Virus record (IMG/VR): IMGVR_UViG_3300028596_000009
Span: 102,824 to 166,823 of that record
Direction: 5' to 3' (one strand)
From: a virus
DNA length: 64,000 nt
This document shows, piece by piece, positions 4,443-63,200 of the stretch. Numbering within the stretch: position 1 is the stretch's first letter; the number at the start of each line of letters is the position of its first letter. The notes below the pieces were generated by a model. That model made no database searches. It was not told the origin of the DNA and was given only the letters and a program-made list of their open reading frames with translations. The translations under genes and the position numbers were made by a program.

Positions 4443-4462
4443 ACCACTGGAAAGGAGAAGAC

Positions 4463-13123: not shown

Positions 13124-14059
13124 GTGCCCCGCCGCCCCACCGGACGCGCACCGGGGCGGCCCAGGGGACCCGTCACAGCGGAAGGAAAGATCGAACGGGC
13201 CCGCACCATTCTCCCGGATGTGCGGGCCTTCCCGTTTCTGTGCAACGCCGTCGACCGCTCCCTGGCCGCACCCGACACGGTGCTGCGTCGTGAGCAGACC
13301 TCGGACTCCCGCAACGTGATTCTCGTTCACCACTACACCCCCGCAGAACGCGGTCAGATCCTGGCCTTCGCCTGGTGGGTGCACACGAACAGAAGCCGCT
13401 GGGACCGGGAAGAACTCCGAGCCGCCGTCATGATCCTGTCTCCGCTGATGATGTTCTCCTCCTCGTTCTTCGAGGAGATGTCAGGGATTCCCGGGTCGAC
13501 AGTCAAGAAAATCATGGTCAAGCCGCCCCAGGTTACGGCCGCCCGTGTCACCGGCACCTGCGACATGGTCGTCATCCACCGACTCCTGGAATCCGCAGCT
13601 CAGGGCATGGCAGAATACCGGGAGACCGTCCGGGAGTTGTCGATCGCCAAAGGGATTCCCGGCGCGATGCTGGCTCGAATCTCCGGCATTCCCAGGGAAG
13701 TTCTGATCCGTCCCGAGCGAGGAGTCAACTTCTTCGCCGAGAAGCCCGACCTCCTCATGGAGCGCGTCTGCACCGCGAACCAGCGCATCACGTACATCAG
13801 CAGGAACCCTCAGGAAAGGAGAGGATATGACCCACAGCCTGGTAATCAGCGGGCCGTCCGTGATGCCCTCGCAGGTACGTATCTGGGTGAATTCTGTGCT
13901 ACCCATGCTCCCGTACCCGACGACGGCGCGCTTCCGTACCACTTCGCAATCCCTGGGTTCCCCGTTCGGCGTCAGGGGGATCCCGTCGGAATCGACGACC
14001 TGCGAAGGATGCAGGAGTGGCAGATGCTCTACCACCTTCCGATTTCCGCCGCTCTATGA
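13124..14059 (+). CDS. Putative DNA-binding protein (basic N-terminus, two HTH-like segments)
   Basis: RPTGRAPGRPRG; FEEMSGIPGSTVKK and LARISGIPREVL; overlaps the polymerase by 233 nt. Confidence 0.55.
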   Translation: MPRRPTGRAPGRPRGPVTAEGKIERARTILPDVRAFPFLCNAVDRSLAAPDTVLRREQTSDSRNVILVHHYTPAERGQILAFAWWVHTNRSRWDREELRAAVMILSPLMMFSSSFFEEMSGIPGSTVKKIMVKPPQVTAARVTGTCDMVVIHRLLESAAQGMAEYRETVRELSIAKGIPGAMLARISGIPREVLIRPERGVNFFAEKPDLLMERVCTANQRITYISRNPQERRGYDPQPGNQRAVRDALAGTYLGEFCATHAPVPDDGALPYHFAIPGFPVRRQGDPVGIDDLRRMQEWQMLYHLPISAAL

Positions 14060-23135: not shown

Positions 23136-23148
23136 GGCTCTCCTTTCC

Positions 23149-38933: not shown

Positions 38934-39098
38934 GGTAGCTGCGGACCTGACGTACTTGTACGAATGTGACAAGAAGTGCGGTACCCTGGGCCCGTCCACG
39001 AAGCTGTACCGTCCATGGCTGGTCCTTGGCGACTCTTCGAGGGAAGCCCCGTCGACTCGATCCCGGCGGGGCTTTCTGCTGCGCCAAATCTATTCGGG

Positions 39099-39190
39099 AA
39101 AACGAAGAAGCCCCCGGTTGCGCAACCGAGGGCTTCCTCTGGAAAGGAGAAAGACGACAAGACACCTGAAAGGAGATCCTGTGGCCTGTC
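39099..39190 (-). ncRNA. Candidate sRNA with two UCUCCUUUC anti-SD motifs
   Basis: TACTGT -10 at 39203-39198, 5' hairpin, terminator hairpin with U-rich tail. Confidence 0.5.
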
Positions 39191-39223
39191 AAGACAGACA
39201 GTACAGGTCTTTGACCGGGAAAG

Positions 39224-39258
39224 CCAGAACCCCCCACGTCAGACGCAGGGGGTTCTGG
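39224..39258 (-). terminator. Terminator after the major capsid gene
   Basis: CCAGAACCCCC-loop-GGGGGTTCTGG followed by CTTT on the minus strand. Confidence 0.7.
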
Positions 39259-39346
39259 GTGAGAGCCGGGGGGAATGGCTCTCCGGCCCTCACGGACCGG
39301 GGTCCGGACCCGGGATGGGTGAGGCCCGGATCCGGCCAGTCGTGGG

Positions 39347-40735
39347 CTACTTCGCCGTGGTGGGCTTGGTCGCCGTGGTCTTCGTCTCGGTCTTCTCGGC
39401 GGCCGGGGCAGCCGGGGCGGCCGGAGCCGGAGCCGAACGGATGGTGATCGGCGCGGCGAAGGAGCCACCGCCGGTCGGGGTGCCGTCACCCAGGGAGACC
39501 GCCACCGCGCTGTTGTCGATACCGGCGGCACCGACGATCGAGCGAACGCGGTACTGGATGTCGTCGTGCGAGAAGGAGCCCTCGAACGCCGACAACTCGC
39601 CACCGCCGAGGCTGCGGCCGGTGTCGCCCATGACGCGGACCTCGGGGGACTCGTGGCCCCGGAGGAACGCGGTGACGATGGCCGGGCCGCGCTCCGTGGT
39701 GCCACCGGCCGGAACCAGGTACCACGTGGTCGCGGCGTCCGCCGACTGGTCGATGAGCGGCAGCCACTGCGACTCGACGACCGTGAAGCGGCCCGCGATC
39801 GGGGAGGCGACGTTGACGCGCAGCTCGTTGCCCGCGCCGTCCGTGGTGACGCGCATGTACGTGGTCGCCTGGGCGATCTCGTGGGCGGTCAGCGCCAGCG
39901 ACGGCGGGACGAGCAGAACGAAGTTCTGCACACGGACCATGCGGCCGTTGACCTTGCGCATGCTGATCTGCTGGATCGCCTTCTCCAGCGCGTCCAGCGA
40001 GAGCGGCGGGTTGTCCGCGACGTAGTTGCCGGGGACGACCTGGGCGCCGAAGTCCTGGCTGGTGTTGAAGAAGTCCGGGTTCGGACCGCTCGCCGTGGCG
40101 AGCACGCCGGTGGTCAGGACGTCCTCGGTGTCACGAGCCCAGCGCGCCATCTCCGACGGGAGCTGCTGGAGGACCCTCAGCTCGTCGTTGAGGAACGCCT
40201 CCCACGAGAAGGGGAACCTTGCTCCGTACTTGTTGACGAAGTAGTCGCTCCCTTCCGTGGTCAGGTTGAACGTCGGGTATTCGGTCAGCTCCGGGATCCT
40301 CGGGAGCGCGCGGACGTGACGCTCCGCACCACCGTTGTGGTCGGGGAGCTGGTCCATCTGCGAGTCCCAGCGGACCAGGCGGGCCGGACGAAAATCGGGA
40401 ACCGTGGTGCGCTGCGAGAAGGTCGGCCACTGCTGCGGCAAGTCGGCGTACTGGCCGAGCATGGACGCCTGCGACACCGCCTGGAACAGCAGCGGGAAGT
40501 CGCCGGAGGACACGGCCTCGCGGAGGCGGCCCATCGCCAGGTGCTGACCCTGCGCGGCCTCGCTGATGATGCGCATCAGCTCGACCGGCCGCTTCATGGC
40601 CATGACGTTCTTGAAGGCGGTGTTCTTGATGACCTGGCGCCGGTTGACGTGCGCCTCGGCGATCTTCGCGAACTCGCGGTTGTTCGTGGTCGAGATGCCG
40701 TCGAAAGCCGAGAGGACGTCGATTTCCTTGCTCAT
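39347..40735 (-). CDS. Major capsid protein (HK97 fold, Mu gpT-like)
   Basis: SSGDFPLL, VPDFRP, ELTEYP, KYGARFPFSWEAFLND, LLVPPSL; strong codon bias. Confidence 0.92.
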   Translation of the reverse strand: MSKEIDVLSAFDGISTTNNREFAKIAEAHVNRRQVIKNTAFKNVMAMKRPVELMRIISEAAQGQHLAMGRLREAVSSGDFPLLFQAVSQASMLGQYADLPQQWPTFSQRTTVPDFRPARLVRWDSQMDQLPDHNGGAERHVRALPRIPELTEYPTFNLTTEGSDYFVNKYGARFPFSWEAFLNDELRVLQQLPSEMARWARDTEDVLTTGVLATASGPNPDFFNTSQDFGAQVVPGNYVADNPPLSLDALEKAIQQISMRKVNGRMVRVQNFVLLVPPSLALTAHEIAQATTYMRVTTDGAGNELRVNVASPIAGRFTVVESQWLPLIDQSADAATTWYLVPAGGTTERGPAIVTAFLRGHESPEVRVMGDTGRSLGGGELSAFEGSFSHDDIQYRVRSIVGAAGIDNSAVAVSLGDGTPTGGGSFAAPITIRSAPAPAAPAAPAAEKTETKTTATKPTTAK

Positions 40736-51128: not shown

Positions 51129-51206
51129 CGCGTTCGGGGGTTGCGCCGTTCGGGGATCTCGTAGATGATGGCCAAGAACTGAGAATTCCTGGAAAGGGGA
51201 AAGTTC

Positions 51207-56555: not shown

Positions 56556-58337
56556 ATGAGCGAGAAGACCGAGACTCAGGACGCGGTGGCCTACCGCATC
56601 CGCGCCGAGCTGGTGTGCTGCGACATCTATGGCACGGTCCAGAAGTGGGCCACCGAGTTCGAGTCGCGCGGTGTTCCGAACGCCTTGCAGGTGGCGATGG
56701 ACAACGCCCGGGTGGCCCGCCGGTGGCACGACCTCTGCTACTGGGGTGAGGCATCGGCCCGAATCGCGGAGGGCGGCTGTCCCGGCTACGAGACGGAGCC
56801 GAACCTGTGCCGCTGTACCTGCGAGGGCTGCAAGCACAACTGTTCCGCACACAAGGAGGACGTGTGACCGACGAGAAGATGATCGGCGAGGCGGCGAAGC
56901 TGATCCGGCATGGCGACAACCGTGTGGACATATCCCTGCGGGGTCCGCTCGCCGACCTGCTGAGTGAGCTGGAGGAGCACGCCGACTCCGAGTACGCGTG
57001 CTGCGACAACGGAGTCAGGCAGTGCTACGAGATCGGCGGCGTCACCATGAACCTGGTCGACGCAATCCTGAAGCCGTTCACCGCGACCGACGGCAGCAGC
57101 GCGTGATGTACGACGAGGACACACTCGTGGTCGAGTCCCGGGCCGAGCCTGCACACTCGGACCAGATCCCACTGCCGACCGATGACTACTGGTTCCACCG
57201 GATCGGCCTCGGGGGCGGATGCTTCCTGGCATCCTTCCGGATGTTCGGCGTCACGGTCATCGGCTTCAGTCCCGCCAACGGTCTCACCCGGTCGCACCCG
57301 GCGCATTACCCGGTCGACGAGATCTACAAGTACATCCGCAGCGCCAAGCCCGACACCATCACTGCCGACACCTGCTTCGCGGCGATCAAGTTGCTGAAGG
57401 AAACCCTGGACAAGGAGACGGAATGAATCAGCGTGAGTACAACGACCGGCGCTCCATGGCGGAGCTGCGTGAGCACGTCGCCGTTCTGGAGCAGCAGCTC
57501 CTTGGCATGTCCGAGGTTGCCAAGGAGAACGAGCAGGCCCTGCTGGGCATCGACAAGCTCCTGCGGATCATCTCCGAGACCGTCGTCGAGGCCAACGACG
57601 TCGGTGGCGTCGACCTGAACGACCTGGCCGACCGAGTGTGCGCCGAGGGCTTCGAGCTGCCCGGGGACGACGAGTGACGGCGGGCGCCGACATGGTGCTG
57701 TGCGGCGGTCTCGGTCCGGCGGAGGAACCGGGTACCTGGCGGCCGTGTCGACTGGAGGAGGGTCACAACTCCCCCTGTATGCCTGTCCCGGATCCTGTGC
57801 GGGCCGAGCTGGTCAAGCTGCGCAGTGACTACCAGGGGCTGGCCGACTGCTACCGAAGGACCGATGATGCGCTGGACCGCCTGATGGACGAGATGGACCG
57901 GCTGCGCGACCGGTACCACGAGAAGGACACCGAGTTCGGGCGCGCTGTCCGATGGGTGGTCGACTGCCTGGATGCTGCCCTCGAAGGTCGTGACCGTCCT
58001 CACCCGTGAACCGTCCAGGACTGGACTGTACGTACTGCCGCACGCTGAGAGAGTGACGGCACGCCAGAAAAGGAGAAAGACCATGTACGAGATCGACTTG
58101 CGCAGGGTGAGCTTCGCCTCCCCGCAGGCCCGCGAGAATTCCACGAGGCGCCTGGGTGCCGCCTCGGTCAGCTCCATCCTCCCCGACCGCGCCTACCGAT
58201 CGCTGTGCCACTTGCACCTGTACGCGACCGAGAAGATCGCCAAGCTCCCCGACATCCCCGAGGGGGACCTGAGCACCCTCGCGTCGCTGGACTACCTCTT
58301 CCTCGACGAGGACAAGGTGGAGGTGACCCTCCGGTGA
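56556..58337 (+). CDS. Run of small hypothetical genes: 56556-56867, 56864-57106, 57106-57426, 57423-57677, 57674-58009, 58083-58337
   Basis: Coupled starts and stops, RBSs. Confidence 0.7.
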
Positions 58338-60237: not shown

Positions 60238-63200
60238 GCTACCTCGCGAGCTGGCTCGAAGACCCCGACGGCGGCGGCATCTTCCCTCGCCAGAGGGACC
60301 TGATCCGGGCCCACGAACCGCAGTGCGACAGCCTCACCTACCTCTACCTGCCACGCAAGGGCGGAGTCTCCTGCATAACCGACTCCATGACCTGCAACGG
60401 CTGCGGCATCGAGTTCTTCTGGGAAGGGCTCTACGCCCCCGAGAAGGACTGCAAGTTCACCAACCACTACTTCTGCAAGTGCTGCCTGACCGAGGAATGC
60501 GACTGCACCGAATGACCGTCCGTACGCACACCCACACCATGACCCCGCTCGCCAACCCGCACATACAGTGCGCCGAGTGCGGCGAACAGGTCACCTCCTT
60601 CCACTGCGCCGAGACCTGTGGCTGTACCGGATCCTCCTGGAACTGGCCCTGCCGTCACGACGCCGACACCCACAACACCTGCCCCACCTGGAGCCCGGTC
60701 GACGGCTGCCAGTGCATCCCGAACGGAGGGGAAACAGCATGAGCGCCCACCCCAACTTCGACGGATGCAGCCTGGAATGCTCCCGGCAGAACGAGCACAC
60801 GAAGGTGTACGGCGATTGCGAGAAGGGCGTGAAGCCCGAGGCCACCGTCACTCTCAGCGTCGTCCTGCCCCATCTCGACGATGTGCCCTCCATCGGCTTC
60901 GAGACCTACACGGTCGAGGGCCTGGCCGATCTGATCGAGCCCGCCCTTCGCGGCGTTCGCATCGAGATCGGGCCGAACAGTCTCACGGCGATAGAGCACG
61001 GCAACGTGCTCACCCTGACCGGCGGCGAGATCCGGTCCATGGCCCTCGAAGCCGCCCACGCCATCATCCACCGCAACGACCCGCAGGAGCAGACATGACC
61101 GAGAAGCCAACGGTCAGCGAGGTATCGGACCGCGCCGAGGAGATAGCGCGGTGCTTCCACGAAGCCTACGAGGAGCTGGCACCGAGTCACGGCTACGAGA
61201 CCCGCGAGGCGTCCCGCAAGCCCTGGGCCGAAGTCCCCGACAACAACAAGGGCCTGATGATCGCCGTCGTGGCGCGACTGCTGGAACGAGAAGTGATCCG
61301 CTGACGCGCCATCATCCATCAGAACGATGAAAGGCCCGCAGTGAACCGGAGAGCAGCCGACAAGGGTGGGGCGGAACCCGGTTTCGTCGGACGCCATAGG
61401 CACGAGAAGTCGACCGACTGCACCTGCGGCCACGACATCGGGTGGCATGGCATCGGGCGCCCGAACAGCCTTCGGCACTGCCGGGTCTGCACCTGCGAAA
61501 GCTTTGAACCCAAGAACTGAACACCCTCCCCGGAAAGGAGAACGACCGTGGCGACCTACGTCACCCATGGCCGCAAGTACCACCTCGACCGCGAGTGCCA
61601 CCTGATGAACGGTGGCGAGAACATGTGGGAGTTCGACAGCGAGGACGGCTGGAGTCACAGCTCCGGCGCGTTCCGTCAGGAAGTCGACGGCCCGATGGCC
61701 GCCTCGTACCTGGGGAAGCTGCCCTGCCTGCACTGCGTGCCGATACCCCACCGGGTCCTCCCGCCGCTGTACGGGCAGACCTTCGGACACGAGCCGGTCG
61801 ACGAGTACGACGGCACCCCCGAGCAGAAGAGGGGTGTCACCCGCATCGTGTGCGCCCGCTGTGTGACCTGGACTCGCTGGACCGACGTCGGTCTGTCGGC
61901 CGGATCCCGCGTCTCGTGGCCCTGCACCTCCGCCAAGATCTTCGGTCTCTGACCGGTCATCATGAAAGGACCCGCCATGACTTCGGACAACCCCTTCGAG
62001 AACGCCTGCAAGCAGTGTGGAGGCTCCGGCTTCGACCCGGACTATGCCGAACAGGGTCTGCCCGGCATCCCGTGCCACGTCTGCAACGACGACCGCATGG
62101 AGAACTTCGCCAACGCCCTGAACAAAGTCCTGGAGGACTACCGGACCAAGAGGCTGACCGCGAACGCTGTCACCTACGCCATCGCGTACGGCATGAACGA
62201 CACCCACGACCTGATCGACCCGACCATCGACGGGTTCGACGAGGACACCCTCGCCCGGATCAAGGAGCACATCAAGAACCTCCAGGAGAACAAGCTGTGA
62301 GCCCCGACCCCCTCGCCCAGCACGTCAGCGGCGGCCAGTGATGCAGGAAGGTCCCGAGTTCGATCAGGCGATGGCGGCCAGCAGCCGGGCCTGGGAAAGC
62401 CTCTTCCCCGAGGCGGTTGCCAGGATCCAGGCCCGAAAAGCCGAGGAGCAGGCCGCCCTTCGCCGCGAGGTCATCGACGAGGTCATCGACCGGATCGAGA
62501 ACTTCTACGGCACCCGCGACGGAATCCTCGCCCTGCTCAACCAGATGAAAGAAGAGACGTGACCGATCCGACCGAGGCCGTGGCCTCCGCCATCCGCGAC
62601 TTCCCCTTCGACAACTACGGGCTCGACGACGTGGACCCCACCGACGAGAACGCCGAATGGGTCGAAGACCTCGCCGCCGCCATCGTCAACCATCTCCTGG
62701 AGAACCCGTGACTCCCGCGCAGCGTATGCGGCGAGCAGCCCTTCTTCTGTCCAGGCTCGCCGACGAAGCACAGGACGACCCGTCCACCCGGGGCGCCTGC
62801 CCGGCTTGCAACGGAACCGGCAGGCGATCCGATCCTCTGCTGATCCAGTGCAGGCACTGCGAGCGTCCGATCACCCGCAAGTCGATCTTCTACGACGGCC
62901 ACCCCAACAACCCGCCGGTCTGGCTCCACGACGCCACGGGTGAACGGATGTGCCAGATCGACTGGATCCGCCATGACCCCCACCCCGTCGCCAAGCCGAG
63001 GACCGAAGAATGAACGAGCCCACCGATCTGGAGTGGACCCGCGCCGAACTCTTGAAGGCGCAGGCCGAGGCGACCGATCTGCTCGCCCGGGCCGAGAAGG
63101 CCGAAGCCGAGGTCGAGCGTCTGCGGCACACCAACCTGGACCAGCGGGCGGTCCTGCGTGACGTCACCGAGCTGAACGACATCCTGCGGCGGCACTCCGA

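Follow-up and report, generated by a model that had tools for sequence, protein, structure and literature searches.

A predicted phage small RNA with a lineage-tuned anti-Shine-Dalgarno seed downstream of the major capsid protein gene

Our analysis of a 64-kb stretch of viral DNA points to a new family of phage small RNAs (sRNAs) that have a generic but lineage-tuned anti-Shine-Dalgarno (anti-SD) seed; this is the best-supported reading of the sequence comparisons presented here. In particular, the element that we describe, located downstream of the major capsid protein gene and on the same strand, is on balance probably the gene for a member of a trans-acting sRNA family that would occlude the ribosome-binding sites (RBSs) of non-structural genes. 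A literature search returned no description of this capsid-downstream RNA.

Results

Architecture and fold of the element

The DNA analysed (the window) is the final 64 kb of one virus record of 166,823 bp with a GC content of 64.7%; positions below are window positions unless given as genome or contig positions, and the virus is referred to as the window phage. The structural genes occupy the minus strand from ~17.7 to ~49.1 kb, and nearly all other genes are on the plus strand. The major capsid gene and the structural gene that comes next are ~410 nt apart, and the element lies in this gap; it comprises, in order, a TACTGT box, a 5′ hairpin, unpaired UUCUCCUUUCC, and a terminator with a U-rich tail:

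39347–40735, minus strand: major capsid protein gene, identified as an ORF and by tblastn; the sRNA element lies downstream on the same strand
39224–39258, minus strand: capsid-proximal terminator-like hairpin CCAGAACCCCC...GGGGGGUUCUGG, identified by sequence; its 3′ arm overlaps the conserved TGGC box
39203–39098, minus strand: whole element
39198–39226, minus strand: promoter-like region, with TGGC (39226–39223), an 18-nt spacer, and G-TACTGT (39204–39198)
39098–39190, minus strand: predicted sRNA of ~93 nt, with its start placed 7 nt past the −10 box and its end at the U-rich tail
39149–39190, minus strand: 5′ hairpin with motif 1 UCUCCUUUC (39176–39168, within GGAUCUCCUUUC); lineage-specific
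39141–39151, minus strand: conserved seed UUCUCCUUUCC, single-stranded, directly 5′ of the terminator
39098–39139, minus strand: intrinsic terminator identified from the fold, with a 16-bp stem (39139–39104) and the tail UUCGUUUUC

A preliminary description of this DNA had drawn the element as a minus-strand TACTGT box, a hairpin, a linker, and a terminator hairpin with a U-tail, and had proposed tandem anti-SD seeds, motif 1 in the hairpin loop and motif 2 in the linker. The box is present at 39203–39198, the linker GUCUUUCUCCUUUCCAG at 39155–39139, and a 16-bp GC-rich hairpin at 39139–39104, followed by UUCGUUUUC. The 5′ hairpin has the arms GACAGGCCAC and GUGUCUUGUC around AGGAUCUCCUUUCAG, as drawn, but its minimum-energy form differs slightly from the drawing. 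The 100-nt RNA folds with a free energy of −43.7 kcal/mol, and none of 200 shuffled sequences folds as well; z-scores in the structure tests were −4.9 (window RNA) and −4.3. The calculated probability of being unpaired is ~1 (~100%) for CCUUUCCA of motif 2 and only ~59% for motif 1.

TACTGT is a −10-like hexamer of the TANNNT type, which is a host type, and the −35 region is weak. A scan for sigma-70 consensus promoters and a simple terminator scan flagged nothing in the region of the element; the terminator hairpin was missed by the latter because its stem absorbs part of the U tract. An Rfam search of the whole window returned no family at gathering score, 6C and RsaE/RoxS included, and the best hits in the region were far below threshold. 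A search of three genomes for TGGC-N17-20-GTAYNNT identified only a few unrelated sites, none of which assigns a temporal class to the promoter; one, at genome positions 94336–94363, is antisense inside or next to a plus-strand gene and was judged to be a chance match.

Further hairpins flank the element. The capsid-proximal hairpin yields a covariance-model match at 39215–39254 and has a counterpart in all relatives. A second conserved hairpin in the capsid 3′ UTR, GAGAGCC...GGCUCUC (39261–39284, minus strand), occupies the same position in the relatives L004–L011, and L001–L003 have a variant of it; its loop carries a conserved pyrimidine motif, (G)CCAUUCCCC, and the Satis clade (below) has at the equivalent position a hairpin with a UCUCCGUUCCUG loop. 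Possibly, this is a further anti-SD-like loop, located upstream of the sRNA. On the far side, ~25 nt past the sRNA terminator, a second GC-rich hairpin, AAGCCCCG...CGGGGCUU (39040–39076), could be a terminator in either direction.

Conservation of the element among capsid relatives

A blastn search of GenBank phages with the 500-nt region returned no similar sequences, and relatives were therefore reached through the capsid protein. This protein is 74–76% identical (tblastn) to those of the Streptomyces phages Satis, JustBecause, and Frankenweenie, which, with their kin, are cluster BM phages with genomes of 184–200 kb (PMC6687918, PMC10652959). A further 37 capsid relatives (71–92% identical) were retrieved from IMG/VR, of which 33 were usable, four being excluded for contig ends too near the capsid gene.

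Satis, JustBecause, and Frankenweenie have the element at the same place and on the same strand, ending in CGUUUCUUCUCCUUUCC, a GC-rich hairpin, and GGAUUUUC; the RNA is ~130 nt in this clade versus ~93 nt in the window phage. The element is unannotated in all GenBank BM-cluster genomes, and the Satis record has no ORF annotated between genes 29 and 30. Immediately 5′ of the terminator, and on the strand of the capsid gene, 31 of the 33 IMG/VR relatives and all three GenBank phages have UUCUCCUU; the single-stranded pyrimidine seed reads UUCUCCUU(UCC). In 29 of the 33, UUCUCCUU and a strong hairpin are found within ~250–400 nt of the capsid stop codon; in L028 and L038, the element lies ~1 kb downstream of the capsid gene, behind an inserted ORF on the opposite strand. 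Among the 33 relatives, the UUCUCCUU seed is absent only from L032 and L033, which are one 13-kb sequence present twice.

Two of these loci have further features. In L032 (4095–4160), a GGTACATT box directly follows the capsid gene and precedes a terminator hairpin with the loop ACCUCCCC, an arrangement that may be a minimal variant of the element. In L028 (4600–4700), the inserted ORF is flanked by several copies of the inverted repeat CCGAACA / TGTTCGG, which look like an operator array.

The terminator is conserved in structure while its sequence diverges. At the terminator site, each of the 20 representative relatives forms a hairpin (−26 to −39 kcal/mol) that is followed by a U-rich tail. 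Ten stem pairs were modelled; every one is canonical in 17–19 of the 19 sequences aligned, and as many as four pair types occur. These pairs come from a covariance-model alignment, which replaced a MAFFT alignment of the 3′ modules in which the stems were out of register and RNAalifold recovered four pairs only. With the Satis clade as its sole source, covariance model R1 matches the window copy (39090–39160, minus strand) and other clades at the syntenic site, with one strong copy per genome, including a single strong copy in the Satis genome. The covariance search in related phages that the preliminary description had suggested thus recovers the element across clades with its terminator pairing kept.

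The remainder of the element is conserved unevenly. Clades share the position of the TGGC-N18/19-G-TA(C/T)NNT box, ~7 nt before the RNA start, but not the sequence of its spacer; in Satis and JustBecause the hexamer is TATCTT. Satis and JustBecause, whose genomes have an average nucleotide identity of 74.4% (PMC6687918), are 93.7% identical over the RNA and 62% identical in the upstream spacer. In distant members, the seed is 84–96% identical, the 5′ motif ACUCACCCUCC 85–90%, and the middle 33–43%; a diverging body with a conserved seed is, at the level of sequence, the pattern expected of a base-pairing sRNA. Of the two proposed tandem seeds, conservation is confined to the 3′ one; loop motif 1 is missing from the closest relative, L004 (capsid 92% identical), where a different sequence takes its place. 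Other clades have different anti-SD-like motifs in the 5′ part, for example UCACCCUCC, or CCUCCUUUCU in L028. The gene downstream of the element differs in identity and strand between relatives.

We weighed against this the reading that the element is a cis-acting or passive part of the capsid mRNA 3′ UTR, namely a second tandem terminator or a stabiliser or processing element, with the pyrimidine tract serving termination, RNA stability, or protein binding and pairing with nothing in trans. The location just past the most highly expressed late gene, capsid, in nearly all relatives fits this reading, as does the presence in the capsid 3′ UTR of another conserved hairpin with a pyrimidine-rich loop; moreover, the capsid-proximal hairpin has a poor U tail, and read-through into the element is therefore plausible. 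The reading is weakened, and we consider it unlikely, because relatives keep a TGGC-N18/19-GTAYNNT box after the first hairpin and ahead of the RNA body, and because the element in L028 is still conserved although ~1 kb with an opposite-strand ORF lies between it and the capsid gene. In addition, a terminator has no need of an invariant 8–11-nt upstream tract, and a cis role leaves unexplained the covariation of this tract with the RBS population of each genome (below).

A scan of all IMG/VR for the seed followed by a hairpin yielded mostly ordinary junctions in which a terminator is followed by an RBS on the opposite strand. In some contigs outside the capsid search, a stop codon is followed directly by a small hairpin, UUCUCCUUUCC, and a terminator, and the reverse strand has no ORF there:

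L083, 4469–4539: hairpin-UUCUCCUUUCC-terminator module
L088, 4766–4845: hairpin-UUCUCCUUUCC-terminator module
L128, 5561–5640: hairpin-UUCUCCUUUCC-terminator module
L132, L136, and L144: further modules of this kind

The small hairpin is CCCGGUUCGCCGGG in L128, L132, L136, and L144, and CCCGUUCGCGGG in L083 and L088. A PHROGs search of the ORFs beside these modules returned no families. The modules may represent an analogous anti-SD RNA in other phages.

Complementarity of the seed to ribosome-binding sites of non-structural genes

Non-structural genes have extended, purine-rich Shine-Dalgarno (SD) regions (GGAAAGGAGAAAGAC type), to which the seed is complementary. The perfect complementarities of the linker that had been reported are exact: 13 nt at 4447–4459 and 58069–58081, 11 nt at 2557–2567 and 61532–61542, and 10 nt at 13813–13822. 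Predicted targets include:

4447–4459, plus strand: RBS CTGGAAAGGAGAA of a plus-strand gene, 13 nt complementary
58069–58081, plus strand: RBS AAAGGAGAAAGAC, followed by ATG, 13 nt complementary
13813–13822, plus strand: RBS GGAAAGGAGA of a gene for a 1102-aa polymerase-like protein, 10 nt complementary

The 166.8-kb genome has eight plus-strand copies of the 9-mer GAAAGGAGA, of which six are RBSs of plus-strand genes, and one minus-strand copy; taken in the direction of local transcription, only the two in the element are anti-SD. The preliminary description had cautioned that any strong SD will match in part. This is indeed expected, and one structural-gene RBS (23139–23148) also has a 10-nt match; the significance of the matches therefore rests on conservation and covariation.

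The RBSs of the two gene groups differ in kind. Non-structural genes have an unusually long common RBS consensus, ~CTGGAAAGGRGAAAGAC (for example at 4447–4459, 51189–51197, and 58069–58081), which extends well past what the 16S tail can pair. Structural-gene RBSs are of the GGAGG or GGGAGG types and match the seed poorly; within the structural block, 16S complementarity is strongest for the capsid gene, at −17.3 kcal/mol.

Duplex energies were calculated between gene positions −22 to −1 and 20-nt seed windows aligned on their common core, for genes called with a heuristic codon-model and 16S-SD caller; starts were uncurated, and most GenBank starts in the Satis structural block were reproduced. 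The seed of the window phage binds structural genes at −11.2 kcal/mol versus −14.8 kcal/mol for the others (p = 0.0025), and the seed of Satis binds them at −10.1 versus −15.5 kcal/mol (p = 1e-6). Structural-gene RBSs are 3.6–5.2 kcal/mol weaker on the seed, whereas 16S complementarity is similar in both classes, and the gap is larger than that for 100 of 100 flank-shuffled seeds of equal composition. G001, the third complete genome (the record of L037), has the same class trend, which is not significant (p = 0.066). The claim that the anti-SD seed is directed at early RBSs is borne out by these energies in the form that it favours RBSs of non-structural, presumably early or middle, genes over those of structural genes.

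Covariation of the seed with the ribosome-binding-site dialect

We compared three complete genomes, those of the window phage, Satis, and G001, which represent three independent lineages only. The seed flanks are UCUUUCUCC in the window phage, UUCUUCUCC in Satis, and CGUUUCUCC in G001; other flank types occur elsewhere, for example in L009–L011 and L017. In a 3 × 3 test, the RBS set of each genome binds its own 20-nt seed best (six of six comparisons, p < 0.03); the lineage-specific effect is modest, with a mean of 0.4–1.3 kcal/mol. When each seed was set against 150 flank shuffles of the same composition, only 0, 1, and 3 shuffles performed as well in the three genomes. Across 67 orthologue pairs between the window phage and Satis, seed-RBS energies are correlated with rho = 0.44 (p = 2e-4), versus a rho of 0.27 for 16S.

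Word counts follow the same division. Specifically, GGAGAAAGA occurs 14 times in the window phage (11–12 of these being RBSs) and in neither Satis nor G001; GGAGAAGAA occurs nine times in the window phage (mostly in coding sequence), 15 times in Satis, where RBSs of this type dominate, and four times in G001; and GGAGAAAC occurs five times in the window phage, eight times in Satis, and 13 times in G001, where it is the dominant type. The CTGGAAAG:TCGGAAAG ratio is 14:8 in the window phage versus 5:14 in Satis, which fits CCAG versus CCGA in the respective RNAs. In four additional genomes that carry the Satis-type seed, AGGAGAAGA occurs 15–31 times and AGGAGAAAG 0–4 times. For Satis gene 67, a non-structural gene, the RBS is of the AGGAGAAGA type. 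A single orthologue illustrates the difference: the RBS of the Satis DNA polymerase I gene is the Satis-type variant AGGAGAAGA, versus GGAAAGGAGA in the window phage. In the consensus fold of the Satis clade, the 5′ seed flank pairs with an internal AAGAAGG stretch, and part of the covarying flank is therefore possibly sequestered.

These comparisons bear on two further readings. The first is that the RNA acts in trans mainly against host mRNAs, with matches to phage RBSs arising as a by-product that is tolerated or avoided. The seed core CUCCUUUC coincides with the anti-SD core at the 3′ end of Streptomyces 16S rRNA and would therefore pair with any strong host SD, and the host-type TANNNT −10 box is compatible with transcription by the host polymerase at any stage. 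Phage RBSs hit only collaterally, however, should avoid complementarity, and the non-structural RBSs instead favour their own seed over shuffled and foreign seeds; the flanks outside the 16S-like core, moreover, covary with phage RBSs. We regard a predominantly host-directed role as quite unlikely.

The second, which we judge very unlikely, is that the RNA pairs with no mRNA and is a decoy of the 16S rRNA 3′ tail, titrating a nuclease or other protein specific for the anti-SD region, such as a host defence toxin, ribosomal protein S1/S21, IF3, or a maturation RNase. Motif 1 GGAUCUCCUUUC and, in the Satis clade, UCACCCUCC together with UUCUCCUUUCC resemble GGAUCACCUCCUUUCU, and L028 has an exact CCUCCUUUCU. 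The invariant UUCUCC nevertheless departs from the CCUCC of 16S, and the 16S-like motif 1 is not kept in the closest relative, L004. A decoy is further weakened because the lineage-variable positions follow phage mRNA RBSs and not the invariant 16S tail. The preliminary description had itself proposed a mimic of the 16S tail with an anti-SD seed. The anti-SD seed stands; the mimicry does not extend to the flanks, which track the RBS dialect of each phage and not rRNA.

The element is non-coding on either strand, as judged by ORF comparison and coding score. To the possibility that the motifs are true plus-strand SD sites for a small protein from GTG 39181 or nearby, which had been named at the outset as a possible refutation of the sRNA, we give almost no credence: GAAAGGAGA at 39168–39176 does precede the GTG at an ideal 5-nt spacing, with an open ORF of 88 codons, but a gene there was rejected on its negative coding score (log-likelihood −0.34 per codon versus +0.26 ± 0.09 for called genes), on missing start codons (no ATG, GTG, or TTG within 3–14 nt of the conserved SD-like site in eight lineages: the window phage, L004, L009, L010, L011, L012, L026, and L037), and on frameshifts (GTG ORFs of the Satis clade are 6–27 aa in most members and mutually frameshifted, two reaching 107 aa and still open). 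In addition, the ORF has a GC3 of 0.75 and runs antisense into the capsid gene, the closest relative, L004, does not have it, and the U tail and −10 box are both on the minus strand. A cis-acting SD-sequestering leader (an RNA thermometer or riboswitch platform) was rejected, as a strong terminator follows the seed and the downstream gene is not conserved.

Discussion

Proposed mode of action

In the trans-acting sRNA reading, the RNA would be transcribed from its own promoter, would accumulate, and would pair in trans with RBSs of non-structural (early or middle) phage mRNAs; for the RNA of Satis and JustBecause, the predicted targets include GGAGAAGA-type RBSs. The U opposite the last SD purine would allow pairing with both GGAGA and GGAGG, and host mRNAs with AAGGAG-type SDs would probably also be paired. 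Pairing would be chaperone-independent, as is usual for sRNAs in Actinobacteria. It would occlude 30S binding, would perhaps trigger double-strand-specific cleavage, and would thereby free ribosomes for structural-gene mRNAs. "Late" expression of the sRNA is a guess from its position alone.

Comparison with known systems

The RNA is a member of none of four systems that it resembles in part: 6C, RsaE/RoxS, c4, and RegB/RegA. The 6C sRNA of Actinobacteria is chaperone-independent and binds purine-rich mRNA at many targets through C-rich single-stranded regions (PMC6486639). Like 6C, the window RNA would be a base-pairing sRNA of high-GC Gram-positives with a pyrimidine-rich single-stranded seed. 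Unlike 6C, which has two C-rich loops, its seed is a linear U/C tract beside the terminator; it is phage-encoded, seems to target an RBS class of the phage itself, and does not match the 6C model. The RsaE/RoxS sRNAs of Firmicutes have conserved C-rich motifs that pair with the SDs of many mRNAs and block translation. The window RNA shares with them an SD-pairing motif, a variable body, and a terminator end, but RsaE/RoxS are host-encoded metabolic regulators with a UCCC motif, whereas the phage RNA has UUCUCCUUUCC and is unrelated in sequence.

Among phage regulators, the c4 antisense RNA of P1/P7 pairs around the RBS of a phage mRNA and blocks its translation (PMC12197685). It serves one operon, ant, and immunity, whereas the generic anti-SD seed of the window RNA matches dozens of RBSs of one class. 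In T4, the RegB endoribonuclease and the RegA repressor turn off early mRNAs through an RBS signature of GGAG plus an A-rich stretch (PMC1702504, PMC3014915). The switch proposed here would likewise be class-specific and act on RBSs, and the T4 signature resembles the GGAGAA(A/G)A dialect of the window phage; RegB and RegA are proteins, however, and the recognising agent of the window phage would be an RNA. A Pfam RegB search found no homologue, but the control search was likewise without matches, which leaves this negative uninformative.

The 16S 3′ tail itself shares the CUCCUUUC core with the window RNA, and motif 1, GGAUC-UCCUUUC, may be compared with GGAUCACCUCCUUUC in 16S. The window RNA differs in that it is not an rRNA fragment, has U in place of C opposite the last SD purine, and has flanks that follow phage RBSs.

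Implications

Known phage sRNAs mostly target single operons or host genes. We tentatively propose, as a possibility that we hold less firmly than the sRNA itself, that in the large BM-like Streptomyces phages one abundant sRNA, made from the capsid region, silences at once, and co-evolves with, a whole RBS-dialect class, and so acts as a global translational switch. If true, it would be an RNA counterpart of T4 RegB/RegA. The RNA can be tested directly, since Streptomyces lividans is a host of both Satis and JustBecause, and matched seed/RBS pairs could serve as orthogonal translational control parts for Streptomyces engineering. A generic anti-SD seed fitted to the RBS signature of a single temporal class of genes would represent a new way in which a virus programmes translation, and would show that RBS sequence outside the 16S-complementary core carries class information.
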